From Planctomycetota bacterium (lineage in GTDB: Bacteria > Planctomycetota > JAJSAM01), in contig JALOQY010000001.1 of NCBI GenBank assembly GCA_025459285.1, forward strand, positions 1-43,700: a stretch of 43,700 nt of DNA, read 5' to 3'. The first letter of the stretch is position 1. The number at the start of each line of letters is the position of its first letter. The notes beneath the pieces were generated by a model. It was not told the DNA's origin. It was given only the letters and a program-made list of their open reading frames with translations, and made no database searches. A program made the translations under genes and the position numbers. Below are positions 5,684 through 34,171 of the stretch, one piece after another.

Positions 5684-5689
5684 TACAAT
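5684..5689 (+). promoter_or_regulatory. Putative -10 box TACAAT, 7 nt before ATG 5697
   Basis: TAnnnT hexamer in GC-rich background. A divergent TAGAAT at about 5598-5603 (minus strand) would serve the pilin operon. Confidence 0.5.
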
Positions 5690-13638: not shown

Positions 13639-15186
13639 TCAGGCCTCCTCGATGCGGACTTCGAGACCGAACACTTCGGCGAAGAGACCGGTCTTCTCCC
13701 GCGCTGCCCACTTGGAGAGAGCCAGATCGCCGTCGGCCCTGACCCGAAGCCGGAGCTTGTCGCCATTGCGCTCCGCGTGGACGGACCGGACGCGCTGGGC
13801 GTGATCGCGGTCGAGGAGGTCCGCCGTGCGGAGAATGGCGGCGAGCTTGCGGACCGTCTCCCGGTCCTTGACCGTAAGCGCGTCGAAGTGGTCGTGCTGG
13901 CGGGTGGGGTGGCGGCGGCGATGGTAGCGGGCAACATTCGCGGCGAGCTGGCGCTGGCGTCGATCGAGGCCCACGATGTCGGACTGAGAGATGAGGTAGT
14001 GGGAGTGTTTGTGGTGTGAATCGGCGGAGACGTAGAGGCCGACGTCGTGGAGGATGGAGGAGGCTTCCAGCAGGGACCGGGCCTCCGAGGGGAGTTCGTG
14101 CAGATCGGCGAGCTGGTCGAAGAGGGAGAGGGCGAGTTCGGTCACCTTGAGCGCATGAGGCTCGTCCAGGGCGTAGCGCCGTCCCAGGCCGAGGGCGGCG
14201 GCGCGGATCTCCCGGCGCCGGGATTCGAGGGCCCCCTTCCGCTCGAGTTCCTCTACCAGGTCGAGGAGGATGCCGTCCTTCAGGCCGACTCCGGGTACGA
14301 GGATCCGGTCCACCTTGAAGACGTCCGCGATCTTGGTGCAGACAACGGCGGCGGGCAGGATGACGTCGGCGCGATCCTCGCGGAGGTTGAACTCCGTGAC
14401 CCGCTGGCGGAAAGTGCTCGAGGCGAGCCGGAGCACGAGATCGCGCAGCGCGCCGACGGAGACGGCCCGGCATCCGCCGTCGAGAGCGGGCGGTCCCTTC
14501 AGGTCCTGGCCCGCGATCTCCGCGAGGCTCTCCGCGGAACCCCCGGTGGCGGCCACGAAGTCCACCGGCTCGCGTCCCAAGGCGGTGCGGATCCGCGCGC
14601 GGATGGCGTCCACGTAGTGGTCGAGGAGCGAGAGGAAGTCGTTGCCCTTGCCCCGGCCGGGGACGGGGAGCGCCTCGAGCAGCCGCACGGCTCCGAACGG
14701 GTAGGACTCGGCACGGACGACGTCGCCGTGGTCGATGACGAGGACCTCCACGCTGCCGCCGCCGATGTCCACCGCGGCGGAGCGCCCCTTCGAGAGATCC
14801 AGGCGGCTGCCCACGGCCCGGCGGACCAGGTGGGCCTCCTCGGCGCCGTCGATCACGGTGATGGTGAGGCCCGTCTCAGCCCGGATCCGCTCGACGACCT
14901 CGGCCGAGTCCGAGGCCTCCCGGAAGGCGCTCGTGGCGATCGCCCGGACGTGTTCCGCGCCGTGGCGCTCGATGGCCCGGAGGAACTGCCGGAGGGCGGA
15001 GATCGTGCGCCCGGCGGCGGCTTCGCCGATCCGGCCCATGAGGAACACCTGCGTGCCGAGGCGCACCGGCTCCCGGAGGTTCTCCAGGACGCGAACTTCC
15101 CCCCGGGCGCCTGCTTCCGCGACGAAGCAGCGCATGGCGTTGGTGCCGATATCGATGGCCGCGAACCGACTCACGCGAACCCCCAA
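13639..15186 (-). CDS. ppx: Exopolyphosphatase / pppGpp phosphohydrolase (Ppx/GppA)
   Basis: AAIDIGTN, ATSAFREA, GAEEA, DIGGGSVE, GLKDG, and HD domain (LHDVG..HHKHS). Start may be GTG 15174. Confidence 0.93.
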   Translation of the reverse strand: MGVRVSRFAAIDIGTNAMRCFVAEAGARGEVRVLENLREPVRLGTQVFLMGRIGEAAAGRTISALRQFLRAIERHGAEHVRAIATSAFREASDSAEVVERIRAETGLTITVIDGAEEAHLVRRAVGSRLDLSKGRSAAVDIGGGSVEVLVIDHGDVVRAESYPFGAVRLLEALPVPGRGKGNDFLSLLDHYVDAIRARIRTALGREPVDFVAATGGSAESLAEIAGQDLKGPPALDGGCRAVSVGALRDLVLRLASSTFRQRVTEFNLREDRADVILPAAVVCTKIADVFKVDRILVPGVGLKDGILLDLVEELERKGALESRRREIRAAALGLGRRYALDEPHALKVTELALSLFDQLADLHELPSEARSLLEASSILHDVGLYVSADSHHKHSHYLISQSDIVGLDRRQRQLAANVARYHRRRHPTRQHDHFDALTVKDRETVRKLAAILRTADLLDRDHAQRVRSVHAERNGDKLRLRVRADGDLALSKWAAREKTGLFAEVFGLEVRIEEA

Positions 15187-18221: not shown

Positions 18222-18827
18222 CTATTCGTGGACGCCCTCGGTCTCGAGGACGAGGTTCATGCCGGGGCTGAAGCGGACCACGATCTTCTCGGCGAACGTC
18301 CCGCGCCGCCACACCCACGTGTCGAAGTTCTCGATCTGCTCCAGAGTCATCGCGTCGGTGTCGTAGTCCCCGACCATGTGCGGCGGGCCGAGGGCAGCGT
18401 AGATCTCCCGGCGGGTCATCCCGATGCGGGCGACGCCCTTTTCGATCGCCTCGCGGGCTTCGGGGGAGAAGTCGCCGGACGACCGGGGGGAGGAGACGAC
18501 GAATTTCTCCAGGAAGTCGTCACCCGGCGCCCCGATATCGAGGTTGAAGGTCCGGCCGTTGCGGGGATCCCTCAGCACGTACTCCCTCGGTCCTCCGCTC
18601 AGCAGCAGCTCCGTGCCGACCGGCAGGAACTCGTCGACCGATTGCCAGTTTCGCCAGGTGATCTCCGTCTCGTCGAGGACCCGGAGGTTGCAGCAGGCGA
18701 AGACGGTACGTTCCGCCCCCAGCGGCTTCGGGGGGTCCCGGGGGAGCCGGATGGCCGAAAGCTCCGGGAATGTGTTGCAGGAGGTTGCGGCGAGGAGCAG
18801 GATCAGGCCCCAGAACCTCGGAAACAT
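18222..18827 (-). CDS. Lipoprotein with SmpA/OmlA(BamE)-like C-terminal motif
   Basis: AGGAGG RBS, lipobox AATSC, IGMTRREIYAALGPP...TWVW. Confidence 0.7.
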   Translation of the reverse strand: MFPRFWGLILLLAATSCNTFPELSAIRLPRDPPKPLGAERTVFACCNLRVLDETEITWRNWQSVDEFLPVGTELLLSGGPREYVLRDPRNGRTFNLDIGAPGDDFLEKFVVSSPRSSGDFSPEAREAIEKGVARIGMTRREIYAALGPPHMVGDYDTDAMTLEQIENFDTWVWRRGTFAEKIVVRFSPGMNLVLETEGVHE

Positions 18828-18921
18828 CGTCTTCCTCCTTCCGGAACGACGCGACGTCAGGCGATCATATCCGGCAAGCCGGCGATGTCAACGGCGGGAA
18901 GGACGGAGGCGGGAGGACGAC

Positions 18922-20004
18922 ATGGACCAGGCCCAGACTCCGGAGACCGTGCGTGCCCATCCGCGGGTGAGCGGCGTGAGGTTCCTGGTCGGCGCGGCGA
19001 GCTTCGTGATCGTCGTGGCGGGCCTGCAGGCCGCGCGACCCATCGTGATCCCCATCCTCATCGCGGTCTTCCTCGCCTTCGTCTGCGTCTACCCCATGCG
19101 CCGGTTGATGCGGCTCGGACTGCCTTCCTGGCTCGCCATGCCCCTGGTGTTCATCGGGCTGCTCGCGGTGCTCGCCGGTACCTCGCTCCTGGTGGGGAAC
19201 TCCGTGGCGAGTTTCACCGCCTCGTCCGGATACTGGAACGAGCGGATCGTGGACCTCGTCGATCGCGCGCTCTCCACCAGCCGTTCGCTCGGCCTGCGGA
19301 TCTCCCGGGAGAAACTCGCCGGTCTTCTCGAGACCGACCGGATCCTCACCTTCGTGTCCGACACCGTGGCCGCCGTCCTCTCGGCGCTCTCGAGCTTCAT
19401 CGTCATTCTCGTCATCTCGATCTTCCTCGTGCTCGAGGCGCACGGCCTGCCCGCGAAGCTCCGGAAGATCCACGGCGACGGCGACGCCCTCACGGGCTAC
19501 GTGGCGGTTTCGGATCGGATCCACGGCTACCTCTACCTGAAGGCCGTCACGAGTCTCTTCACCGGCGCTCTCGCCGCCGGGCTGTTCGCGATCTTCGGCG
19601 TGAGCTTCGCCGTCGTGCTCGGGCTCATCACCTTCCTGTTCAACTTCATCCCCACGATCGGCTCCGTGATCGCGGGCATACCCGCCGTGCTCCTCTGCCT
19701 CGTGGAGCACGGGCCTGGTCGCGCCCTGCTGCTCCTCGCGATCTACGTGGGCATGAACATGCTGATCGGCAACGTGCTCGAACCGAGGCTCATGGGCCGG
19801 CGGCTCGGCCTCTCGCCCGCCGTGGTGCTCCTCTCGCTCATTTTCTGGAACTGGGTCCTCGGCCCGGTGGGGATGCTGCTCTCCCCGCCGCTGACGATGA
19901 TGGTGAAGATCCTCATGGAGCAGAGCGCCGACCTGCGGGGCGCCGCGATCCTCCTCGGCACACCGGACGAGGACCCGCCGGCCCCTGACGCGCCCCCGGG
20001 CTGA
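18922..20004 (+). CDS. AI-2E family transporter (TqsA/YhhT-like)
   Basis: GGAGG RBS. FNFIPTIGS, GNVLEPRLMG..LGLSP..V.LSLIFW..VLGPVGMLLS motifs. Confidence 0.92.
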   Translation: MDQAQTPETVRAHPRVSGVRFLVGAASFVIVVAGLQAARPIVIPILIAVFLAFVCVYPMRRLMRLGLPSWLAMPLVFIGLLAVLAGTSLLVGNSVASFTASSGYWNERIVDLVDRALSTSRSLGLRISREKLAGLLETDRILTFVSDTVAAVLSALSSFIVILVISIFLVLEAHGLPAKLRKIHGDGDALTGYVAVSDRIHGYLYLKAVTSLFTGALAAGLFAIFGVSFAVVLGLITFLFNFIPTIGSVIAGIPAVLLCLVEHGPGRALLLLAIYVGMNMLIGNVLEPRLMGRRLGLSPAVVLLSLIFWNWVLGPVGMLLSPPLTMMVKILMEQSADLRGAAILLGTPDEDPPAPDAPPG

Positions 20005-20005
20005 T

Positions 20006-22255
20006 TCAGGCCCGCAGGGCCGCCGCTTCCACCACGCCCACCGTGGTCAGGTTCACGACCTGCTCCACCGTCGCTTCGTACTGGAGGACGTGGGCCGGGA
20101 GCGCCGTGCCCATGAGCACCGGGCCGATGGGGATCGCCTCGCCCATGTACTGGAGCGAGTGCATCGTGAGGTTCCCGGACTGGAGGTCGGGGAACACGAG
20201 GACGTTGGCGTCCCGATCGATGTCGGCGAAGGGGAAGCATGTCCGGCGGAGCGCGCCATCGCGTGCCGCGGCGAGCTGCATCTCCCCGTCGATCCGGAGG
20301 TCCGGCGCCATCTCGCGGGCGAGTGCCACGGCGCGGCGGACCTTCCTCGTGTGGGGGTGGTCGACGCTCCCGAAATTCGAGAACGAGAGCATCGCGACGC
20401 GGGGCTCCACGCCCAGGGCGCGGCTCGTGCGGGCCGCCAGCACGGCGATCTCAGCGAGGTCCGTGGCGTCCGGGTCGACCTGCACCGCGCAGTCCGCGAG
20501 GAACACGACGTCCCGCGGCAGCAGTACGAGGTAGTGGCTCGAGACCTTCCGCACGCCGGGCGCCGGACCGATCGCCTGGAGCATCGTGCGCAGCGTCTCC
20601 ACGTAGTGACTCGCATACCCCGCGATCAGCATGTCGGCGTCTCCGCAGCGGACCATCATCGCCGCGAAGATGTCCGGCCTCGTCACGAGCCTGGCGGCGG
20701 CATCGCGCATGACGCCGCGGCGCTTCCGCAGCTCGAAATAGGCCTCCACACAGGCCCCGAACCGGGGGCTGCGCTCCGGCTCCACGATCGGTACCCCCCC
20801 GAGGTCCAGGGAAAGCCGGTCGGCCTTCTCGCGGATCTCGCGCTCCCGGCCGAGCAGCACGGGGCTCGCGATCCCCTCGTCGAGGAGGATGCCGCAGGCG
20901 CGGAGGATCGCTTCGCTCGTCCCCTCGGAGAAGACCACGCGGAGTTTCGCCTGCCGGGCGCGGAGGATCAGCCCCCGCATGGTCTCGCGGCCGGTCCCGA
21001 TCCTCGTCGTGAGGATCTCGTGGTAGGCCGCCGCCTCCAGTGGTCGCCCCGCCACCTCCTCCCGGACGGCCTGCTCGGCCACGGCGGCCGACTCGCGCAC
21101 GAGGATCCGCGGGTCGATGGGCTTCGGCAGGAGGTAGCTCGGGCCAAACGCCATCGTCTCGTCCGCGTAGGCCCGCACGACCTCCTCCGGCACCTCCTCG
21201 CGCGCAAGGTCGGCGAGAGCCCGGGCCGCGGCGAGGAGCATCCCCTCGGTGATGCTGGTGGCCTGCACGTCGAGAGCGCCCCGGAACACATAGGGCACGG
21301 ACAGCAGGTCGAGGATGGCGTTCGGATACTGGCCGAGGCCGGTGGCCACGATCACGTCCTTGCGGCAGGCCCGGGCCACCCCGTAGTCGATCTCCGGCTC
21401 CGGGGTGGCCAGGGCGAAGACGATGGGGAACCGGGCCATGGACCGCACCATCTCCGGGGTGAGGACCCCGGCGGCGGAGGCCCCGACGAAAACGTCCGCG
21501 CCTCGAAGCCCTTCGCCAAGGGACGCCGAAGGGTGCGGGCGGGCGAACTCCCGCTGGTAGGCGTGGAGGTCCGTCCGGTCGGAATGGAGGAGGCCGTCCC
21601 GATCGTAGACGAGCAGGTTCTCCGGCCGGACGCCGAGCTTCACGAACAGACGGGCGCAGCCGGTGCCCACGGTCCCCGCTCCGCAGAGGACGACGCGCGC
21701 GCCGTCGATCCGCTTGTCGGTCAGATCGAGGGCGTTGAGCAGCGCCGCCGCGGCCACCACCGCCGTGCTGTAGAGGTTTTCGTGGAACACGGGGATCCGG
21801 AGGCGCGCGAGCAGGCGCTCGTAGATGATCAATCCCTCGGGCGCCCGGATGTCCTTCAGGTTCACGGCCCCGAATGTCGGCTCGAGCATCGCCACGGTCT
21901 CCACGAACTTCTCCGGATCCGTGGTGTCGATCTCGAGGTCGAAGACGTCGAGGTCCGCGAGCCGCTTGAACAGCACGGCCATGCCCTCCTGCATGGGCTT
22001 CGCGGCGAGCGGACCGACGGCCCCGAGCCCGGGGACGGCGGTACCGTTCGTCACGACCCCCACGAGGTTCCCCCGCGAGGTGAAGCGGAAGGCCGCCGAG
22101 GGATCGGCGGCGATCTCCTCCGCGGGGAACGATGCCCCGGGGAGGTAGGCGAGCCGCATCTCCCGCGGCGTGACGCAGGGCTTCGCCGGTCGGACCTCGA
22201 TCTTCCCGGGCCGGCCCGCGGCGTGATACTCGAGCGAATCGTGTCTCCGGATCAT
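20006..22255 (-). CDS. maeB: MaeB-type malic enzyme/phosphotransacetylase fusion (749 aa) with substituted active site
   Basis: LEYH..RPGKIEV, GNLV.VVTNGTAV.GLG, FALATPEPEI, PKP.DPR, then a PTA domain (VVFSEG, FLADC, AMLSFSNFGS, DGEMQ, ANVLVFPDLQSGN). ATGA overlap with the upstream gene and GGAGG RBS. Confidence 0.9.
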   Translation of the reverse strand: MIRRHDSLEYHAAGRPGKIEVRPAKPCVTPREMRLAYLPGASFPAEEIAADPSAAFRFTSRGNLVGVVTNGTAVPGLGAVGPLAAKPMQEGMAVLFKRLADLDVFDLEIDTTDPEKFVETVAMLEPTFGAVNLKDIRAPEGLIIYERLLARLRIPVFHENLYSTAVVAAAALLNALDLTDKRIDGARVVLCGAGTVGTGCARLFVKLGVRPENLLVYDRDGLLHSDRTDLHAYQREFARPHPSASLGEGLRGADVFVGASAAGVLTPEMVRSMARFPIVFALATPEPEIDYGVARACRKDVIVATGLGQYPNAILDLLSVPYVFRGALDVQATSITEGMLLAAARALADLAREEVPEEVVRAYADETMAFGPSYLLPKPIDPRILVRESAAVAEQAVREEVAGRPLEAAAYHEILTTRIGTGRETMRGLILRARQAKLRVVFSEGTSEAILRACGILLDEGIASPVLLGREREIREKADRLSLDLGGVPIVEPERSPRFGACVEAYFELRKRRGVMRDAAARLVTRPDIFAAMMVRCGDADMLIAGYASHYVETLRTMLQAIGPAPGVRKVSSHYLVLLPRDVVFLADCAVQVDPDATDLAEIAVLAARTSRALGVEPRVAMLSFSNFGSVDHPHTRKVRRAVALAREMAPDLRIDGEMQLAAARDGALRRTCFPFADIDRDANVLVFPDLQSGNLTMHSLQYMGEAIPIGPVLMGTALPAHVLQYEATVEQVVNLTTVGVVEAAALRA

Positions 22256-25200
22256 GACCATTCCTCCGAACCCGCCGAAAGCGGGAATCTCCCGAGCGTC
22301 GCCTCGAGCGCCGGGAGGAGAACCGGCACGGGGCGCACCTGAAGGATGAAGACACGGCTCCTCTCGATGCCGAACTCCACGTCCACCGGATGGCCGAAGA
22401 CCTCCTCGAGACGGGCGGCAAGGCGGACGAGTTCGGCGAGTTCCACGTACTCGAGCGCCGGCCGCAGGCGCTGGTGATAGAGGCTCTCCGCGCGGATCGT
22501 GCCCCGACCGGCGCGGCGGTCGAAGACGATCCGTTCCCGTTTGTCCGCCACCGCGTAGCTCATCCGGAAGCCGCCCCGCGTCAGGTCTCCCTCCTTCGAG
22601 ACGGTGACGTGGTCCGCGGCGACCGTGCCGGAGACGATGCCCTCTCCGAGCCCGAGTCCGGCATTGATGACCATCTCGCCCTCCTCCCCTCGCGCCACGT
22701 CCACGGTGAGCAGCACTCCGGACACCCGGGAGTCGACCATGCGCTGGACGAGGACTCCGCCGCCCCCGGCGCCGGGGCCGAAGAGAGTCCGGTTGTGGAT
22801 CGCGCGCTCCGTCCAGAGACCGCTCCAGCAGTTCGCGAGCGTTTCGAGCAGGGCCGCCTCGCCCCGGACGAAGAGGAAGGTCTCGAACTCGCCGGCGCGG
22901 GACGCGGCCTCCGCGTCCTCCTCGCGGGAGGAGGAGCGTACGGCCACGAACGTCTCCTCCCCGTCCGGTCCGAGGGCCCGGTAGGCCGAGCCGATCTCCT
23001 CGGCGAGGTCCTTCGGGGGGCGAACCTCGGCGAAGAGCCCGCGGATGAGCGCGGCCTTCTCGGCGGCGGTGGGCCCGTCGCGCGCGAGCACGGTGTCGAT
23101 GGCCGCGCGGAGGCTCCCGGACCGGCTCCGCTCGGCGGCGAGTCGCGGAGCGACCTCCGCCAGCGGACAGTCGAGAACGCGGCGCAGCGCGGCGTCGGTG
23201 ACCGTGAACCAGGGCGGCACGAACTCGGCCCCGAGGATGCGGGCGGTCTCCGCGAGGTTCGCCGCCTTGGCCCCCGCCAGCGGCAGCAGTTCGAACCCGC
23301 CGTCGGCGGCGGTGAGGATGGTCCGGCCGGCAAGGCGCCGCTCGCGCTCCGCGTCCCGGGCCGCAAGGTCTCTCGCCGGTCGCGCGAGGTCCTCGTGCCC
23401 GCCCTCCGGCGTTCCGAGCAGGGCGTCCGCGCGCGCCGCCCGGCGCAGCAGATGGCGGAGGTGGGGGTGCTCCGGTGAGATGGAGATCGCGGCGGCGTCG
23501 CGCAGTTCGTGGAGCCTCCGGCGGGCAAGTACATCCAGCGGGGCGGTGGAAGGCGCCCCTCCCGCGGGACCGGCGAGGGCCCTCGTGGCCCGTAGGGCTT
23601 CGAGGCGGGGGGCCAGCACCTCGAAGAGGCCGATGGCGCGCGGAATGCGGTCCTCGGCCCTCCGGAAGGCCCTCCGGCGGCGTGCCTCGAGTTCGCGGGC
23701 GGTCTGCGCGACGAAGGTCGGGACCACCGCCGTGACGGCGGGGTTCTGTCCGAGGGTCGCGAGGAGTTCCTCGCGATCCGTGACGGTCTCCCCGAGCAGG
23801 AGCTCCCGGACCGCGAACCGCGCGAGCACGGGATCGACGAGGCGCCCGAGCACTTTCGCCACCTGATGTCGGGCGCGCAATCGCCGGCCGCGGAGCACGA
23901 GCGCGTCGGCATCCGACGGGGCGGCGCCGAGGCACTGCTCGGCCTTCGCGAGGTGGCGCAACCCCTCGGCGAGGGCGAGGGTGTCACGGTCCTGGCCCAG
24001 GACTCGCAGGGTTCCGGCGGTGGCGTTGAGGACGAGGAGGTCCCCTTCGACGAGTCGGTGTTCGCGTTCCCGGAGGTTCCGGCGTTCGCCGATCCGGAAG
24101 CCGCGGACCTCGTATTCCTCCTCCCGATACTCGGGAACGGTGAAGAGGAGGATCGGAGCTCCGGAGGCATCCGCCGTCCAGCGTCCGGGGATCACCAGCG
24201 CGGGTTTGCGGAACTGGAGCGCGATGAGCCCGGCGTGGGAGAGGGCGCCCCCTCCGGTGGAGACGACGCCCGCCGCGCGGTAGAGGCCCGGGGTATCCTC
24301 CGGCCGGACCGCGGCCTTCACGAGGATGGCGCCCTCGAGGGCTTCCGCCGGGGTATCGCCGTTCCCGAAGACGGCGTGGCCGGAGGTCCGCCCGGGAGCC
24401 GCCGGCAGTCCGGTGATCACCCTCTCCCCGGGAAGTGGCCCCGGCTCCCGGACCAGATCCCCGGCGGCGATTTCGCGGAGCAGCCGCCGGGCCTCCTCGC
24501 GGGCCTCGGACGAGGACGGCTCGACCTCCACCAGGGGGAAGTTGGCCCGGCGGAGCTTCCCGGCGAGAGCCGGCAGCGGCACGCCGGGGCACCGGGCGAG
24601 TCGGATGATCCCCGCCTCGTCGCGCAGCACCGACAAGGCCAGTCCTTCCCCGGGCAGACCCAGCCGCGCGCTGAGGACGTCACGGCCCGCGACGTGGCCA
24701 ATGGTCCGGAACGACAGCGTCCGCGCCACGGGTCCCGTGAGGCGGGCGCAGGCCACCGCCTCGGCCACCGCGGCCTCGCCCTCCGCGAGGAGCTCCGCGA
24801 ACCGCACCGCCTCGTGCCGTCGGCCGGAGGCGGGCCGCGGGCCCTCCGGCCCCGGGATGATCTCGCCGCGGGCCAGGGCTTCCGCGAGTGGGGTGAGGAC
24901 CGTCTCTTCGAGCCGGATCTGCCCGAGGGCCCGCCTCCGGTCTTCCCCCCCGAACGATGGCTCGGGCAGGCGAAGGGCGGCGAGTCCGGCCGCGAGACGG
25001 TCGAGGAGCCCCGGGAGGGGCGGGCCGCCGAAGCGGTCCCCCGGGGGGCCCTCGCCGGTCCACGGGATCTCCTTCTCGCCGAGGGGACCCCGCTCGATCG
25101 CGGCGAGGACGCCCCGGCGGTCCTTCGTGAGGAGCGCGCGCAGGGGAAGCGCGCCGTGGCGCGCGAAGGACGCCGCCCACTCCTCCGCCAGCGTCTCCCG

Positions 25201-27030
25201 GGCCCCGGGCGGGAGATCCAGGGAGCCGAGGACCCAGTCGAGATCCATGAGATACGGCGCGAGGCGCAGCATCGCCGCGGCCCGGTCGCAGAGCGTCCCG
25301 AGGTCCACGACCGACTCCTTGTCCGCCCGCGCGTGGACCCGCGTGCCGCGGACTTCCACGTCGAAGCCGAGCGCGGCGAGGAAGGCGCGAAGAGACTCGA
25401 GGCCCGGTGCCGGGTGGGCGTCCAGCTCGTAGTTGCTGACCCCGAAGAACTCGAGGTCCACCATCCCGCCCCGCAGTGGGGGCGAGAGGTCGAGGCGCAG
25501 GAACGCCGGGTGGTTGCGGAACGAGAGATAGACGTGGACCTCGTTGCCGTAGGAGTGGACCTCCACCCAGGGGAACTTCTCCTGTCCGGCGAGGAGTTGT
25601 CGCGCGATGCCGTCGAGGGCGGCGCGCACGGGCCAGGGGAGGCCCGCGTCGCCGGAGAAGTCGGCGTACTTCACCACCTTCGCGCTGGCGAGGCGCCCCT
25701 TCGTCGCCACGACGACGTCGGCGGTGCGGCGCGGCGCCCGCCCGGCGCCGACGAACGAGAAGCCGAGGCGCAGACCGCGCTGGTGGAGATAGCGCTTCAG
25801 GCCGTGCAGCGTGCGGACCTCCCCCAGGTTCCGAGGGTCCTCGAACGCGTTCACGAGCCGGGTCAGCTCCGGGGACAGATGCTCCCGGCCGGCCTCGCGC
25901 CCGAGTTCCCGCGCGATGGCGTCGCGGAGATCCCGCCACGCCCCGGGGAGGAGCGCGCACTCTTCCGAGAGGTTCGCGAACAGCGCGATGAAATCTTCAA
26001 CGACCGCGCCCATGTCGGCGACGAGCGACTGTACGCGTTCCTTCGTCAGGGGCGCGAGATCGAGGATCCGCTCGAGAAGGGCGGCGTGACGGAGGTTGAG
26101 CGTGCGGAAGCGGTCCACGGGGGCGCCGGTTTCGCGCGCGTTGTCCGGACTGCCGGCCTCCCCGCCGTGGGCGAAGAAGATGACCGATTCGCCGGCGCGG
26201 CGGAGCCCGTCCGCGCCATCGAGGAGGGAGGCGGCGTAGGGGGGAACGAACAGCGGCAGGGCGCCGCCGGTGACGAAGCCCGCGAGGCGCTTCGCCTCGA
26301 TGCCGTGGTTCACCCTGGCCCAGCCGAGAGAGGCGACGACCTCGCGGAGGAGCTCGAAGCCGGCGACTTCCTCCGCCCGGCGCATGGCCGCGACGGTGCC
26401 GGCCGTCAGGTGCGAAAGATCGAGGTGCGACGCCCGCGTGTAGTCGAGATACCCGGCCAGGAAGTCGTGATCCGCGGGGGCGAGAAGCTGCCGGGCGGTC
26501 TCTGGTGGGGCGGGTTCGCCGGAAAGATCGAGGATGCGGGCGGCCAGCCTCCGGACGCTCTCGTCGCGGGCGTCGAGGAAGTGGCCGGTCAGCGGCCCCG
26601 CGCGGGCGAGGATGCGCCCGGCGTCGGCGATGGCGTCCGGTCCGGCGAAGGGCGAGTCATCGATCTCGACGCGCTCCGCGATCGCGGCGAGGATCGCCCC
26701 GCCGGGGAGTGCGTCCCGCTCCGCGGCGAGACGCAGCGCGCGGCGGGCGAGTGAGGGGTCGCGCGCGCCAAGGAGCGATCTGAAGAGGGGCCAGGGATCC
26801 GCGAGACCGGCGGCGGCCTCGGCGAGGAGGTCGAAGACCGGCACCAGGACCGCGCCCGCCCGCTCGCCGAGGAGGTCGCCGAGAGGGTGGAGCGGGGCCG
26901 GGTCCGGAAGCGGGAAGTACCGGCGGAGTCGATCGCAGTGGCCGGCGACATCCACGGGATCGGCCGTCGCGAGCCGCGCTGCGGCGGCCACGCGCCCGAC
27001 AAGGTCGGCGATCTCGTCCCGCGAGGACAT
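22252..27030 (-). CDS. 1592-aa PEP synthase/PPDK-family dikinase-like protein with order unknown N-terminus, phospho-His domain, ATP-grasp
   Basis: His domain GLPAAPG..SG...GVVSTGGGALSHAGLIA (His932). C-terminal nucleotide-binding domain GAKAANL, VAVRSS..ED...S.AGEFETFL, VLVQRMV..SGV, GLGEGIVSG, DVEF, ILQVRP. Confidence 0.88.
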   Translation of the reverse strand: MSSRDEIADLVGRVAAAARLATADPVDVAGHCDRLRRYFPLPDPAPLHPLGDLLGERAGAVLVPVFDLLAEAAAGLADPWPLFRSLLGARDPSLARRALRLAAERDALPGGAILAAIAERVEIDDSPFAGPDAIADAGRILARAGPLTGHFLDARDESVRRLAARILDLSGEPAPPETARQLLAPADHDFLAGYLDYTRASHLDLSHLTAGTVAAMRRAEEVAGFELLREVVASLGWARVNHGIEAKRLAGFVTGGALPLFVPPYAASLLDGADGLRRAGESVIFFAHGGEAGSPDNARETGAPVDRFRTLNLRHAALLERILDLAPLTKERVQSLVADMGAVVEDFIALFANLSEECALLPGAWRDLRDAIARELGREAGREHLSPELTRLVNAFEDPRNLGEVRTLHGLKRYLHQRGLRLGFSFVGAGRAPRRTADVVVATKGRLASAKVVKYADFSGDAGLPWPVRAALDGIARQLLAGQEKFPWVEVHSYGNEVHVYLSFRNHPAFLRLDLSPPLRGGMVDLEFFGVSNYELDAHPAPGLESLRAFLAALGFDVEVRGTRVHARADKESVVDLGTLCDRAAAMLRLAPYLMDLDWVLGSLDLPPGARETLAEEWAASFARHGALPLRALLTKDRRGVLAAIERGPLGEKEIPWTGEGPPGDRFGGPPLPGLLDRLAAGLAALRLPEPSFGGEDRRRALGQIRLEETVLTPLAEALARGEIIPGPEGPRPASGRRHEAVRFAELLAEGEAAVAEAVACARLTGPVARTLSFRTIGHVAGRDVLSARLGLPGEGLALSVLRDEAGIIRLARCPGVPLPALAGKLRRANFPLVEVEPSSSEAREEARRLLREIAAGDLVREPGPLPGERVITGLPAAPGRTSGHAVFGNGDTPAEALEGAILVKAAVRPEDTPGLYRAAGVVSTGGGALSHAGLIALQFRKPALVIPGRWTADASGAPILLFTVPEYREEEYEVRGFRIGERRNLREREHRLVEGDLLVLNATAGTLRVLGQDRDTLALAEGLRHLAKAEQCLGAAPSDADALVLRGRRLRARHQVAKVLGRLVDPVLARFAVRELLLGETVTDREELLATLGQNPAVTAVVPTFVAQTARELEARRRRAFRRAEDRIPRAIGLFEVLAPRLEALRATRALAGPAGGAPSTAPLDVLARRRLHELRDAAAISISPEHPHLRHLLRRAARADALLGTPEGGHEDLARPARDLAARDAERERRLAGRTILTAADGGFELLPLAGAKAANLAETARILGAEFVPPWFTVTDAALRRVLDCPLAEVAPRLAAERSRSGSLRAAIDTVLARDGPTAAEKAALIRGLFAEVRPPKDLAEEIGSAYRALGPDGEETFVAVRSSSREEDAEAASRAGEFETFLFVRGEAALLETLANCWSGLWTERAIHNRTLFGPGAGGGGVLVQRMVDSRVSGVLLTVDVARGEEGEMVINAGLGLGEGIVSGTVAADHVTVSKEGDLTRGGFRMSYAVADKRERIVFDRRAGRGTIRAESLYHQRLRPALEYVELAELVRLAARLEEVFGHPVDVEFGIERSRVFILQVRPVPVLLPALEATLGRFPLSAGSEEWS

Positions 27031-27130
27031 GGCGCCCTGTGCGCGGCCCGTGGATTGTACGCTTCCGCGGAGCGCGGCGCCACCCCGTTGTGGCGACCGT
27101 CCGGCCTGGCCGCCCGTCGCCGAGAGGCTG

Positions 27131-27646
27131 CTAGCGGCGTGAAGCGAGGCGGACGATTCCGGAGCCGAGGAGGCCGAGGAGGGCCACCGCGGTCCCGGTG
27201 AGGAGCAGGGCAGCCGTGCTGCTGACCCCGTTCGCGATGTCTGCCGGGGTCACTTGTGCGCTGAGCCGGCCGATCGTGTCCATGGCGCCCCGCAGGCCAG
27301 TCAGGGCGCCGAGCAGCGCGAAGAGGAACGCCGCTTCGCCGAGGCCCCGGACGAGCGCACCCCAGCAGGGCCACGCCCCTTCCCGGCGCACCGCGCAGGC
27401 CCCGAGCAGTGTGGCGGCGAGCACGGCGACCCCGAGCGCGAGGAGGGTCCACTGTCCCCACCCGCGCGCGGTGCCCACCCCCGGAAAGCCGGTCCCGGGC
27501 CTTCCCGTGTCCGGCCCGGCCGCCTCGGCCGCTTCGACCGTCCAGTCCGTGATTCGCACGGCGGGGATCTGCACGAAGGTGAAGGGCAGCGTGAGGAGCA
27601 GGAGTACCACCGCACCCCGCGCCGCGACGAAAGCCGCTCGTCCCAT
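27131..27646 (-). CDS. Small membrane protein with MotA/TolQ/ExbB-like C-terminal helices
   Basis: GGAGG RBS. LLGALTGL..AMDTI....TPADIANGVS...LLTGTAVAL resembles the proton-channel TM pair. Confidence 0.55.
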   Translation of the reverse strand: MGRAAFVAARGAVVLLLLTLPFTFVQIPAVRITDWTVEAAEAAGPDTGRPGTGFPGVGTARGWGQWTLLALGVAVLAATLLGACAVRREGAWPCWGALVRGLGEAAFLFALLGALTGLRGAMDTIGRLSAQVTPADIANGVSSTAALLLTGTAVALLGLLGSGIVRLASRR

Positions 27647-28632: not shown

Positions 28633-28638
28633 TACAAT
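28633..28638 (+). promoter_or_regulatory. Putative -10 box TACAAT, 8 nt before ATG 28647
   Basis: TACAAT-gcgccgca-ATG with no Shine-Dalgarno. Confidence 0.55.
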
Positions 28639-28646
28639 GCGCCGCA

Positions 28647-28943
28647 ATGTCGCCTCTCTGTCCGACTCGCGAAGAACTCCTCGTGGATTGCCGGGGTCGT
28701 CCCTATTTCCTCTGGGACTGCGAGCTGACGCTGGACGAATTCCGCGCGAAACTCCGGACGGGAGACCGTGCGCAGCGGGCCTACCTCGCCGGGAAGCTCA
28801 TGCGCCAGGCGAAGCCCGACGACGTCTTCTCCTTCGTGAGTCTCTCTGAGATCCGGGACCTCTGGCCCGACCTGGCGGGCACCCTCGGCCGCACGCGCGA
28901 CTTCTGGGAGTGGATTCTCGGCGAGTGGGGGGTGGTGTCATGA
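28647..28943 (+). CDS. Small protein, putative antitoxin of the AbiEii toxin
   Basis: 98-aa ORF MSPLCPT...RPYFLWD...FWEWILGEW with ATGA overlap into the toxin gene. Confidence 0.75.
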   Translation: MSPLCPTREELLVDCRGRPYFLWDCELTLDEFRAKLRTGDRAQRAYLAGKLMRQAKPDDVFSFVSLSEIRDLWPDLAGTLGRTRDFWEWILGEWGVVS

Positions 28944-29605
28944 CCGACTCGCGACTGACTCCCCTCCAGCAGAATGTCCTCGGGACCCTGGCCGGCATCG
29001 AACCGCCCTGGACCCTGACGGGGGGAGGCGCCCTGGCCGGCTTCCACCTGTGTCACCGCGCAACGCGGGATCTCGATCTGTTCTGGCACGCTCAGGTGAA
29101 GCTCGGTCCGTGGAGGGAGGAGTGCGCGCATCGCCTGCGCGACGCCGGATTCGAGGTCGCGATCCTGCAGAGGTTCGACACCTTCGAGAGGCTCCTCGTG
29201 TCGGACGGTGCCGATCGAGTGGTCCTGGACCTGGTCGCGGAGCCGGTGCCGGCGATCGAGCCGCCGCAGCAGGTCCCTCTCGGTGCCACCCGGATCCTGG
29301 TGGACACGCCGCACGAGATCCTCGTGAACAAGCTGTGTGCGCTTCTCGGCCGGGCCGAGCTCAGGGACCTCCACGAGCTGAGGGAACTGCTGGCCGTCGG
29401 AGGCGATCTCCCGCGGGCACTCCGCGACGCGCCACGGAAGGACGGCGGGTTCTCCCCGCTCATGCTGGCCTTCCTGCTCCGCGACATGCCCGTGGAGATG
29501 ATGGCCGCGGCGAGTGGACTCGGCGAACCGCTGGCCGGGGAACTCCTCCGCTTCCGCGACGAACTCGCGCCGCGCCTGCTCGCCGCGGCACGGCCCGGGC
29601 ACTAG
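28940..29605 (+). CDS. AbiEii/AbiGii-family nucleotidyltransferase toxin
   Basis: LTGGGAL...HRATRDLDLF NTase motif and NKLCALLGR.E.RD. Confidence 0.88.
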   Translation: MTDSRLTPLQQNVLGTLAGIEPPWTLTGGGALAGFHLCHRATRDLDLFWHAQVKLGPWREECAHRLRDAGFEVAILQRFDTFERLLVSDGADRVVLDLVAEPVPAIEPPQQVPLGATRILVDTPHEILVNKLCALLGRAELRDLHELRELLAVGGDLPRALRDAPRKDGGFSPLMLAFLLRDMPVEMMAAASGLGEPLAGELLRFRDELAPRLLAAARPGH

Positions 29606-34055: not shown

Positions 34056-34171
34056 GCCGCACCTCCGATGGCCATTGTATCGGGGCGGGGGAGCGGGTCC
34101 CGTATCGGTGACCGATCCTGCTCCTGACTCGTGTCACGTGACGCGGGACATCGGATCCCGCGCCGGCTTCG

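Follow-up and report, generated by a model that had tools for sequence, protein, structure and literature searches.

Among dikinases, the enzymes closest to the system described here, rifampin phosphotransferase (RPH) is built in the order ATP-grasp, substrate domain, and His domain. Potato GWD1, a glucan, water dikinase, is arranged differently: acceptor domains come first, followed by the His domain and a C-terminal ATP-binding domain. The acceptor side is made up of two CBM45 modules and an all-alpha central domain of 20 helices, and only a short linker separates the His domain (residues 931-1050) from the ATP-binding domain (residues 1069-1387) (PMC13553574). A second relative is MaeB, a hybrid malic enzyme whose PTA domain is described as a hexameric acetyl-CoA sensor (PMC7902834). 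Here, we report a gene pair that draws on both families. It lies in a stretch of 43,700 nucleotides (hereafter the window; positions 1 to 43,700 of contig JALOQY010000001.1, assembly GCA_025459285.1) with a G+C content of ~72%, which is a contig of a Planctomycetota metagenome-assembled genome (MAG) of 5.0 Mb in 534 contigs with 88% completeness. Gene A encodes a giant dikinase and gene B, immediately downstream, a MaeB-derived protein. The pair is an undescribed variant assembled from two known enzyme families, and we favor, with a probability of roughly 0.45, a two-subunit heteromeric dikinase in which the MaeB-derived pseudoenzyme serves as a ligand-binding or scaffold subunit. A full-text search limited to one literature collection found no paper on such a dikinase/MaeB pair, in agreement with the first-pass annotation of this DNA, whose author knew of no description of one.

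We examined whether the two genes occur together elsewhere by scanning one genome per prokaryotic species, which returned 30 loci, all from MAGs. A gene B homologue was located directly 3' of gene A on the same strand at 29 of the 30 loci; at the 30th (L032), the contig stops inside gene A. According to the record titles, the 30 loci carry labels of about seven phyla. The Acidobacteriota loci are labeled Thermoanaerobaculia, Vicinamibacteria, Holophagae, and Terriglobales, and the other labels are Bacteroidota including Ignavibacteriales, Candidatus Eisenbacteria, Polyangiaceae, "delta proteobacterium," Methylomirabilota, Gemmatimonadota, and one Hyphomicrobiales MAG. A Latescibacterota label was also found among the proteins matching the N-terminal region of gene A (residues 1-870). 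The carriers come from wetland, sediment, and soil metagenomes, settings in which many genes have no assigned function. At the 29 loci, the spacing between the genes was a 4-nt NTGA overlap in 19 cases, a 14-nt overlap in 1, a gap shorter than 85 nt in 8, and a 1.4-kb insert in 1, the last being occupied by an MFS transporter gene on the same strand in an Eisenbacteria MAG (L036:14918-16144(+)).

The linkage was equally strict within the class of one carrier, for which 201 genomes were searched (the non-carriers include 5 unpublished genomes). The profile of the N-terminal region matched six genomes; the same six hold both genes, and the remaining 195 hold neither. Partner-type matches to gene B, with 57-75% identity, came from precisely these six, each located just past gene A on the contig that bears it. 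The other 147 genomes with a gene B match all showed at most 50% identity among the matches listed, which leave out 9 lower-ranked ones. Five of the six carriers of the class also hold a canonical-type MaeB, and among five other carriers a canonical-type MaeB was found in two and none at E <= 1e-30 in three. The test proposed from the window sequence, whether an adjacent substituted MaeB co-occurs with gene A homologues, thus gave a positive result (29 of 30 loci in about seven phyla, and all six carriers of the class), and the translational coupling noted there is indicated by the 4-nt overlap for most loci (19 of 29).

The two genes appear to travel without company. No neighbor other than the two genes themselves was common to at least five loci, groups found in three or four loci reflected the local synteny of related loci, and 20 flanking proteins in other loci had mixed, unrelated functions. 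One protein of 2410 aa (P0087) was considered as a fusion of genes A and B and was rejected: its alignment breaks in the linker and the ATP-grasp domain, and the intervening text looks out of frame. We read it as a frame-disrupted dikinase running into the frame of the partner and not as a genuine fusion protein. The 120 and 150 matches listed in the two databases that were searched contained no further fused form.

Gene B has the full-length MaeB architecture in Pfam, consisting of PF00390 (malic N-terminal), PF03949 (Malic_M, NAD-binding), and PF01515 (PTA_PTB). Residues 6-745 align end to end with the solved MaeBs 6zng (E 4e-194) and 8jzo, and the score on the MaeB model NF009501 was 693.1 bits against a cut-off of 1178. 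Judged by these alignments, gene B is a descendant of the hybrid malic enzyme. We then compared the catalytic residues of 26 partner sequences with those of Bdellovibrio bacteriovorus MaeB (BbMaeB). In the BbMaeB paper, E149, located at the Mg site, is given as the putative proton donor, K107 as the general acid/base, and D174 as the residue that holds K107, and Y52 is also named as catalytic (PMC7902834). The numbering of that paper was placed on chain 6zng_A with an inferred offset of 11, at which all four named catalytic residues match the letters of the alignment. The position of K107 (partner position 92) was Met in 9 partners, Ile in 8, Val in 4, Ala in 3, and Leu in 2, and was Lys in none of the 26. 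At the position of E149 (partner 134), Lys was found in 24 and Arg in 2, with no Glu. D174 (partner 159) was replaced by Glu in 24 and kept as Asp in 2, and Y52 (partner 37) was Tyr in 23, Ala in 2, and Ser in 1. BbMaeB D150 and D175 are presumably metal ligands, roles that we carried over from human ME2. The former (partner 135) was Asp in all 26 partners; the latter (partner 160) was Asn in 20, Ser in 3, Gly in 1, and Asp in 2. Counting E149 as the remaining metal ligand, gene B has two of the three replaced.

The nucleotide site was altered at the positions that contact the NADP 2'-phosphate and the nicotinamide. For BbMaeB, the same paper describes the nucleotide-binding motif GAGASA at 207-212, K250, R242, and D233 as residues for NADP+, with K250 contacting the 2'-phosphate, and N300 and V330 at the nicotinamide (PMC7902834). 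In the partners, the position of K250 (partner 234) was Gln in 24 and Arg in 2, and that of N300 (partner 284) was Thr in 22, Phe in 3, and Ala in 1. Asn was found in 0 of the 26 at the position of N331 (partner 315), and N332 (partner 316) was Asp in 23 and Gly in 3; the partners have thus lost Asn residues located close to the nicotinamide and the substrate. The Rossmann features G192, G194, and G197 (GxGxxG), D218, and R227 were kept in all 26, and a new Arg34 was likewise present in every partner. The adenine-dinucleotide-binding half of gene B thus looks preserved. The first-pass annotation had described gene B as a full-length MaeB with substituted catalytic residues, and the absence of both Lys and Glu from all 26 sequences extends this description to the whole clade. 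It had also asked whether separate canonical genes exist: the window genome carries, on a separate contig, a canonical MaeB with the canonical residue at each motif compared, and PEP-utilizer barrels (PEP, phosphoenolpyruvate) also lie elsewhere in that genome.

The PTA-like half was examined in the same way. The Ser-Arg of the ...DLSRG... motif is catalytic in Pta. A C-terminal D(L/V)SRG was found in four of four genuine Ptas of relatives. Nine partners aligned at this motif read L(L/V)(Q/P/E)(Y/F/H)(G/E), without Ser-Arg, and the canonical MaeB reads VLNHW. Given the pocket substitutions together with the loss of Ser-Arg, gene B is very probably neither a malic enzyme nor a Pta.

Loss of the catalytic residues was not accompanied by loss of constraint. 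When loci were compared two by two across a set of 24, the identity of gene B correlated with that of the N-terminal region of gene A (r = 0.86), and gene B exceeded the N-terminal region in identity in 276 of 276 locus pairs (medians, 64% versus 42%), these pairs being related sequences and not independent observations. Within gene B, the malic-enzyme (ME)-like half reached a median identity of 67%, compared with 59% in the PTA-like half. Three genomes contain a partner as well as a canonical MaeB; in these, the partners shared 67-74% mutual identity and the canonical MaeBs 57-58%, a comparison in which horizontal gene transfer (HGT) can shorten divergence times. From these identities, the "dead" domain of gene B is plainly under purifying selection.

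We next turned to gene A. In Pfam, the phospho-histidine domain PF00391 was detected at residues 899-952 with 38 bits (cut-off, 23.1), and the ATP-grasp domain PF01326 at residues 1250-1569 with 185.7 bits (cut-off, 27). In 30 full-length homologues, G926, G927, L930, S931, H932, and A933 (GG..LSHA context) were invariant, as were the ATP-grasp residues K1255, R1365, S1366, S1367, E1371, D1372, Q1429, D1550, E1552, Q1564, and R1566. Because His932 and these ATP-grasp residues are invariant, the ATP-splitting and phosphate-carrying parts of gene A look functional. By contrast, Pfam gave no match to the PEP/pyruvate barrel PF02896 in gene A, although the same model does match barrels elsewhere in the window genome, in two contig-end fragments. 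The secondary structure of residues 1-870 in an AlphaFold2 (AF2) model is also not that of a beta/alpha barrel. The picture of an intact ATP-grasp and phospho-His without a recognizable barrel, drawn earlier from the letters of the window, is therefore borne out by Pfam and by the invariance of His932. The linker between the two domains (residues 1013-1249) matched no family in Pfam or NCBIfam.

The His domain of gene A precedes the ATP-grasp domain, the opposite of the order in PEP synthase, PPDK, and RPH. The word "permuted" in the first-pass annotation was correct in this respect; the arrangement is nevertheless not unprecedented, since potato GWD1 has the same order (PMC13553574). The equivalog models of PEP synthase and PPDK scored far below their cut-offs on gene A (NF005057, 200 versus 598; TIGR01418, 192.4 versus 739.75; TIGR01828, 47.9 versus 843.45), and so did the RPH equivalog NF041857 (170.6 versus 999 bits). 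The PpsA, PPDK, and RPH equivalogs and the solved chains align only with the His and ATP-grasp domains of gene A. Another atypical dikinase-like protein of 926 aa is encoded in the same genome (457-3237 (+) of its locus); only PPDK_N was detected in it (residues 349-718), with neither a His domain nor a barrel.

The N-terminal 870 residues are, by the searches that follow, a family of their own. Pfam found no family in residues 1-870 of gene A, and among the N-terminal regions of 29 family members, 28 had no match and 1 had a weak match to HEAT_2. A search against 1.84 billion representatives yielded 192 clusters (50% identity) at E <= 0.001; among the 150 clusters listed, most were proteins of 1600-1750 aa and the rest shorter pieces. 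In a second protein database, 197 proteins matched the N-terminal region, and among the best 120 of these 197, PF00391 and PF01326 were both present in 114, the other six being 902-1496 aa long. The N-terminal profile gave nothing below E 0.2 against PDB sequences, and a search of the ESM Atlas gave no usable match.

The AF2 model of the N-terminal region, built from a 29-row alignment, had a pLDDT of 85.9 and a pTM of 0.83. It consists of helical repeats (residues 1-240), a beta segment (243-290), a four-helix bundle (295-433), an alpha+beta part (435-660), and a mixed part extending to about residue 860. The whole model showed similarity to ARM/HEAT repeats and helical bundles only. The ARM/HEAT matches were weak (Foldseek E at least 0.012; VIA Z about 8-10 on residues 1-148), and in VIA residues 243-433 gave only helical-bundle matches, with Z up to 12.1. 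In the family alignments, the invariant residues of the N-terminal region cluster at 396-600. A separate AF2 model of residues 384-866 (pLDDT 84.8) gave no Foldseek match at E <= 0.001, and its best match across VIA, the C-terminal domain of T4 MotA, reached a Z of 5.8, too low to mean anything beyond a common arrangement. Thus, no known fold was found for the modeled core, a result that does not show the fold to be new.

The reading that we favor, a heteromeric dikinase with a MaeB-derived subunit, would work as follows. Genes A and B would constitute a horizontally mobile module, complete with its two genes, and would specify a phosphotransfer enzyme of two subunits. ATP would be split by the product of gene A and its beta-phosphate placed on His932, as in PpsA, PPDK, RPH, and glucan, water dikinase. 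The His domain would then swing toward the conserved N-terminal core and meet an acceptor site there, an arrangement like that of glucan, water dikinase. The product of gene B would be made in step with that of gene A and would stay bound to it as a non-redox subunit, whose ligand may be a nucleotide or of the acyl-CoA type and which may scaffold or gate the dikinase through the PTA-type oligomeric hub. In the first-pass annotation, the pair was considered a possible metabolite-sensing phosphotransfer system.

Several points weigh against this reading. The association of the two products is proposed from the genes alone, and the acceptor site is tentatively assigned to the N-terminal core of gene A, and not to the partner, on the strength of conservation alone; that core contains no recognized ligand site. 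A catalytic partner with new chemistry would be just as compatible with the strict linkage and the conservation of the partner, and HGT could inflate the conservation of the partner relative to canonical MaeBs. All carriers are MAGs, and the phylum labels therefore depend on binning. A sample of 400 further genomes from the phylum of the window contained no copy of the gene A N-terminal region, and in 40 relatives of the window genome the matches to gene A were limited to the ATP-grasp and His domains; since the module is absent from those 400 genomes, the window contig could be a recent transfer or could have been wrongly binned. In a complex prediction for one domain pair, residues 384-960 of gene A were combined with residues 1-420 of gene B, each with a separate alignment and without controls; the score was 0.00 and the mark 0.32, which speaks neither for nor against binding.

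The main rival explanation moves the acceptor site to the partner. In a split dikinase, the remodeled malic pocket of gene B would itself be the acceptor site, supplied in trans for the missing barrel of gene A, and the N-terminal region of gene A would be mainly a scaffold; His932~P would dock on gene B and phosphorylate a hydroxy- or keto-acid or another small anion there. The ME-like half is indeed the most conserved part of the system (67% median identity), and the substitutions focus on the substrate, metal, and nicotinamide pocket, making it more cationic and metal independent: all 26 partners have Lys or Arg in place of Glu and carry the new Arg34, and 24 of the 26 have lost the second metal-ligand Asp. 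Malate and pyruvate are ligands of the parent pocket, a barrel is missing from gene A, and a pyruvate/oxaloacetate carboxyltransferase gene stands beside the pair at two loci (L021 and L026). These two are, however, just 2 of the 20 neighbors examined, the loss of the metal site speaks against PPDK-type enolate chemistry, and the dense invariant charged residues in the gene A core would be unneeded in a mere scaffold. We regard a split dikinase as doubtful, and its more specific form, in which the stripped, cationic malic-enzyme site acts in trans as the acceptor pocket and a C3/C4 hydroxy- or keto-acid or related anion is phosphorylated in the former malate site, as unlikely. If that form were true, the reaction would be an undescribed one at or near the PEP-pyruvate-malate node, and a malic enzyme would for the first time have been recruited as a subunit that presents a substrate and has no redox role. 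The strong purifying selection acting on the pocket, the invariant Rossmann motif, and the new invariant basic residues could also mean that gene B has enzymatic activity of a new, metal-independent kind on the product or substrate of gene A, the two forming a two-step pathway that needs no stable complex. Malic enzymes belong to a wider dehydrogenase fold that uses Lys as a base. In the partners, however, the general-base position is hydrophobic or Ala in 26 of 26, the nicotinamide-contact position (N300 in BbMaeB) is Thr, Phe, or Ala, and the Tyr is present in 23 of 26 and so is not invariant. The 4-nt overlap in 19 of 29 loci, moreover, suggests matched protein amounts, which are more usual for subunits, and a two-step pathway appears improbable to us.

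Gene B might instead be the substrate, with His932~P of gene A phosphorylating it and thereby switching its oligomeric state or binding activity. PTS enzyme I (of the phosphotransferase system) phosphorylates HPr and is a precedent for a protein acceptor in the dikinase superfamily, and the partner carries clade-specific hydroxyl residues (T195, T284, S319, Y322, T336, S389, and S573). No new invariant His or Cys was found in the partner, though, and an enzyme of 1600 aa with a conserved extra core is large for a kinase of a single protein; we consider this quite unlikely. A xenobiotic or antibiotic phosphotransferase or a defense module, comparable to RPH, would accord with the patchy distribution across many phyla without conserved neighbors, with the MFS transporter gene between A and B in L036, and with the AbiEii toxin gene 1.9 kb upstream in the window. 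It is very unlikely all the same: PADLOC-DB 2.0, which covers systems described by 2023, matched gene A with 0 families and gene B only through weak matches of its Rossmann region to E1-E2 models (E between 4e-4 and 4e-3), the RPH equivalog is far under its cut-off (170.6 versus 999), the 20 neighbors in other loci show no defense or mobile-element theme, and the MaeB-like partner would be left without an obvious role. Finally, the genes could simply be a PEP synthase beside a working NADP-malic enzyme; homologues are named "pyruvate, water dikinase" by some sources, and the best NCBIfam rows are PpsA and MaeB. This explanation is hardly tenable in view of the scores (192-200 bits versus cut-offs of 598-740 for the PpsA equivalogs and 693 versus 1178 for MaeB), the lack of a barrel in gene A, the missing catalytic Lys and Glu in 26 of 26 partners, and the canonical MaeB elsewhere in the same genome.

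The structure of the locus was then inspected at the nucleotide level (Table 1). The start codon ATG of gene B occupies 22255-22253 and the stop codon TGA of gene A occupies 22254-22252, and the ATGA overlap is therefore real; the minus strand at the junction reads ...GGAGGAATGGTCATGATC.... Both this overlap and the intactness of the two genes had been claimed in the first-pass annotation, and the open reading frames and codon positions agree with it. Purine-rich, GGAG-like runs precede the start of the partner in other loci as well. The junction is bridged by short contigs from two other metagenome runs, with 0 and 2 differences.

The same annotation had the two genes share an upstream TACAAT. 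The hexamer is present as described, but a promoter role rests on one -10-like hexamer: a two-hexamer sigma-70 scan of 19500-27400 called no promoter, and therefore only a lone -10-like element is shown. The window contains 4 copies of TACAAT where 0.45 would be expected, and a count of 4 was reached in 0 of 100 shuffles. Two of the copies sit 18-23 nt 5' of likely start codons, at 27030 and 34055. TACAAT may perhaps be a -10 element of the window organism, used with short leaders.

The genes flanking the pair are unrelated to it: an AI-2E-family transporter, a SpoU methylase, a dienelactone hydrolase, an AbiEii-family gene, and a Ppx/GppA phosphatase. The transporter gene ends 1 nt from the gene B stop, which therefore leaves no room for an intergenic terminator, and no terminator was called there. 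The Ppx/GppA phosphatase, 5 kb away, is not conserved next to the pair in the other loci. At individual loci elsewhere, a pyruvate/oxaloacetate carboxyltransferase gene (PYC_OADA + HMGL-like; L021:2151-3458(+)) overlaps the gene A start, a similar carboxyltransferase gene lies 1.2 kb downstream of the pair (L026:17584-19434(-)), and an H+-pyrophosphatase gene lies 3.2 kb downstream of it (L023:20459-22660(-)). Together with the transporter gene of L036, these neighbors hint weakly toward the pyruvate/oxaloacetate node or small-molecule transport.

Table 1. Features of the gene pair and its surroundings in the window
Feature	Position	Strand	Details
Gene A	22252..27030	-	1592-aa dikinase, new family: N-terminal region, His swivel, linker, ATP-grasp; reading frame open
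Helical (ARM/HEAT-like) repeats, residues 1-240	26311..27030	-	AF2 model, weak ARM/HEAT matches
Beta segment and four-helix bundle, residues 243-433	25732..26304	-	Invariant H409-G-L-K412-R413-x-L-H416-Q417 motif
Conserved alpha+beta core, residues 435-866	24433..25728	-	Invariant E497, H507, R512, D525, H539, R568, D570, K571, D596, D598
Phospho-histidine swivel domain, residues 870-1012	23995..24423	-	PF00391 at 899-952; His932 codon 24235-24237
Linker, ~240 residues, 1013-1249	23284..23994	-	Conserved within gene A family
ATP-grasp nucleotide-binding domain (PPDK_N), residues 1250-1569	22324..23283	-	PF01326
ATGA start/stop overlap of genes A and B	22252..22255	-	Sequence read
GGAGGAA, Shine-Dalgarno-like run within gene A end	22261..22267	-	5 nt before gene B ATG
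Gene B	20006..22255	-	749-aa MaeB-derived protein without malic-enzyme catalytic residues; reading frame open
Malic-enzyme-like domain, residues 1-420	20996..22255	-	Pocket: M92, K134, E159, N160, Q234, T284, L315, D316, new R34; kept: G192, G194, G197, D218, R227
PTA-like domain, MaeB type, residues 425-749	20009..20983	-	PF01515 at 312 bits
TACAAT, -10-like hexamer	27054..27059	-	23 nt before gene A ATG at 27030
TACAAT copies in the window	5684-5689 (+), 27054-27059 (-), 28633-28638 (+), 34074-34079 (-)		
AI-2E-family transporter	18424-20004	+	Converges on gene B; ends 1 nt from gene B stop (20006)
AbiEii-family nucleotidyltransferase (type IV toxin-antitoxin)	28910-29605	+	1.9 kb upstream of gene A, opposite strand
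Ppx/GppA phosphatase with HD domain	13639-15186	-	5 kb from pair

Both parts of the pair belong to enzyme families of central carbon metabolism that have been studied extensively, and the pair fits the established function of neither. Gene A has kept the dikinase machinery and has the substrate barrel swapped for ~870 residues, whose core (435-866) matches no known family or solved fold in the searches described above. The malic-enzyme copy, although very probably stripped of its chemistry, varies less than the working enzyme of the same genomes. If the functional assignments proposed here hold, the system would represent a new branch of the dikinase superfamily with an uncharacterized phosphorylated product, and gene B would probably be the first pseudoenzyme derived from a malic enzyme. 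The current annotation labels "pyruvate, water dikinase" and "NADP-dependent malic enzyme" would mislead metabolic models of the carriers.

Compared with known systems, gene A resembles GWD1 in layout: both are giant dikinases with the acceptor side first (a putative one in gene A), then the phospho-His, and a C-terminal PPDK_N-type domain, and neither has a PEP/pyruvate barrel. In GWD1, the linker from the His domain to the ATP-binding domain is short, whereas that of gene A has ~240 residues, and the GWD1 central domain consists of 20 helices, whereas residues 1-870 of gene A match no Pfam family and contain an alpha+beta core; the GWD1 central domain may lie outside the structure library that was searched. 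GWD1 also has no MaeB-like partner. With PpsA and PPDK, gene A shares homologous ATP-grasp and swivel His domains in which the conserved catalytic residues are kept, and it differs from them in its reversed domain order, in the lack of PF02896, and in its own 870-residue N-terminal region. RPH is likewise a barrel-less dikinase with a family-specific substrate-binding domain instead, encoded by a stand-alone, patchily distributed gene, and its ATP-grasp domain (5fbs, 5hv1) aligns with that of gene A at E 2e-34; unlike gene A, it is about 865 aa long and has no partner gene. Gene B, for its part, aligns end to end with the MaeBs of E. coli and B. bacteriovorus, shares their three Pfam domains, and like them lacks the Ser-Arg of Pta. 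It is set apart from them by the replacement of the residues corresponding to BbMaeB K107 (by M, I, V, L, or A), E149 (K or R), D175 (mostly N), K250 (Q or R), and N300 (T, F, or A), and by the fact that the partners form a separate identity class (57-75% versus at most 50%) that is strictly linked to gene A.

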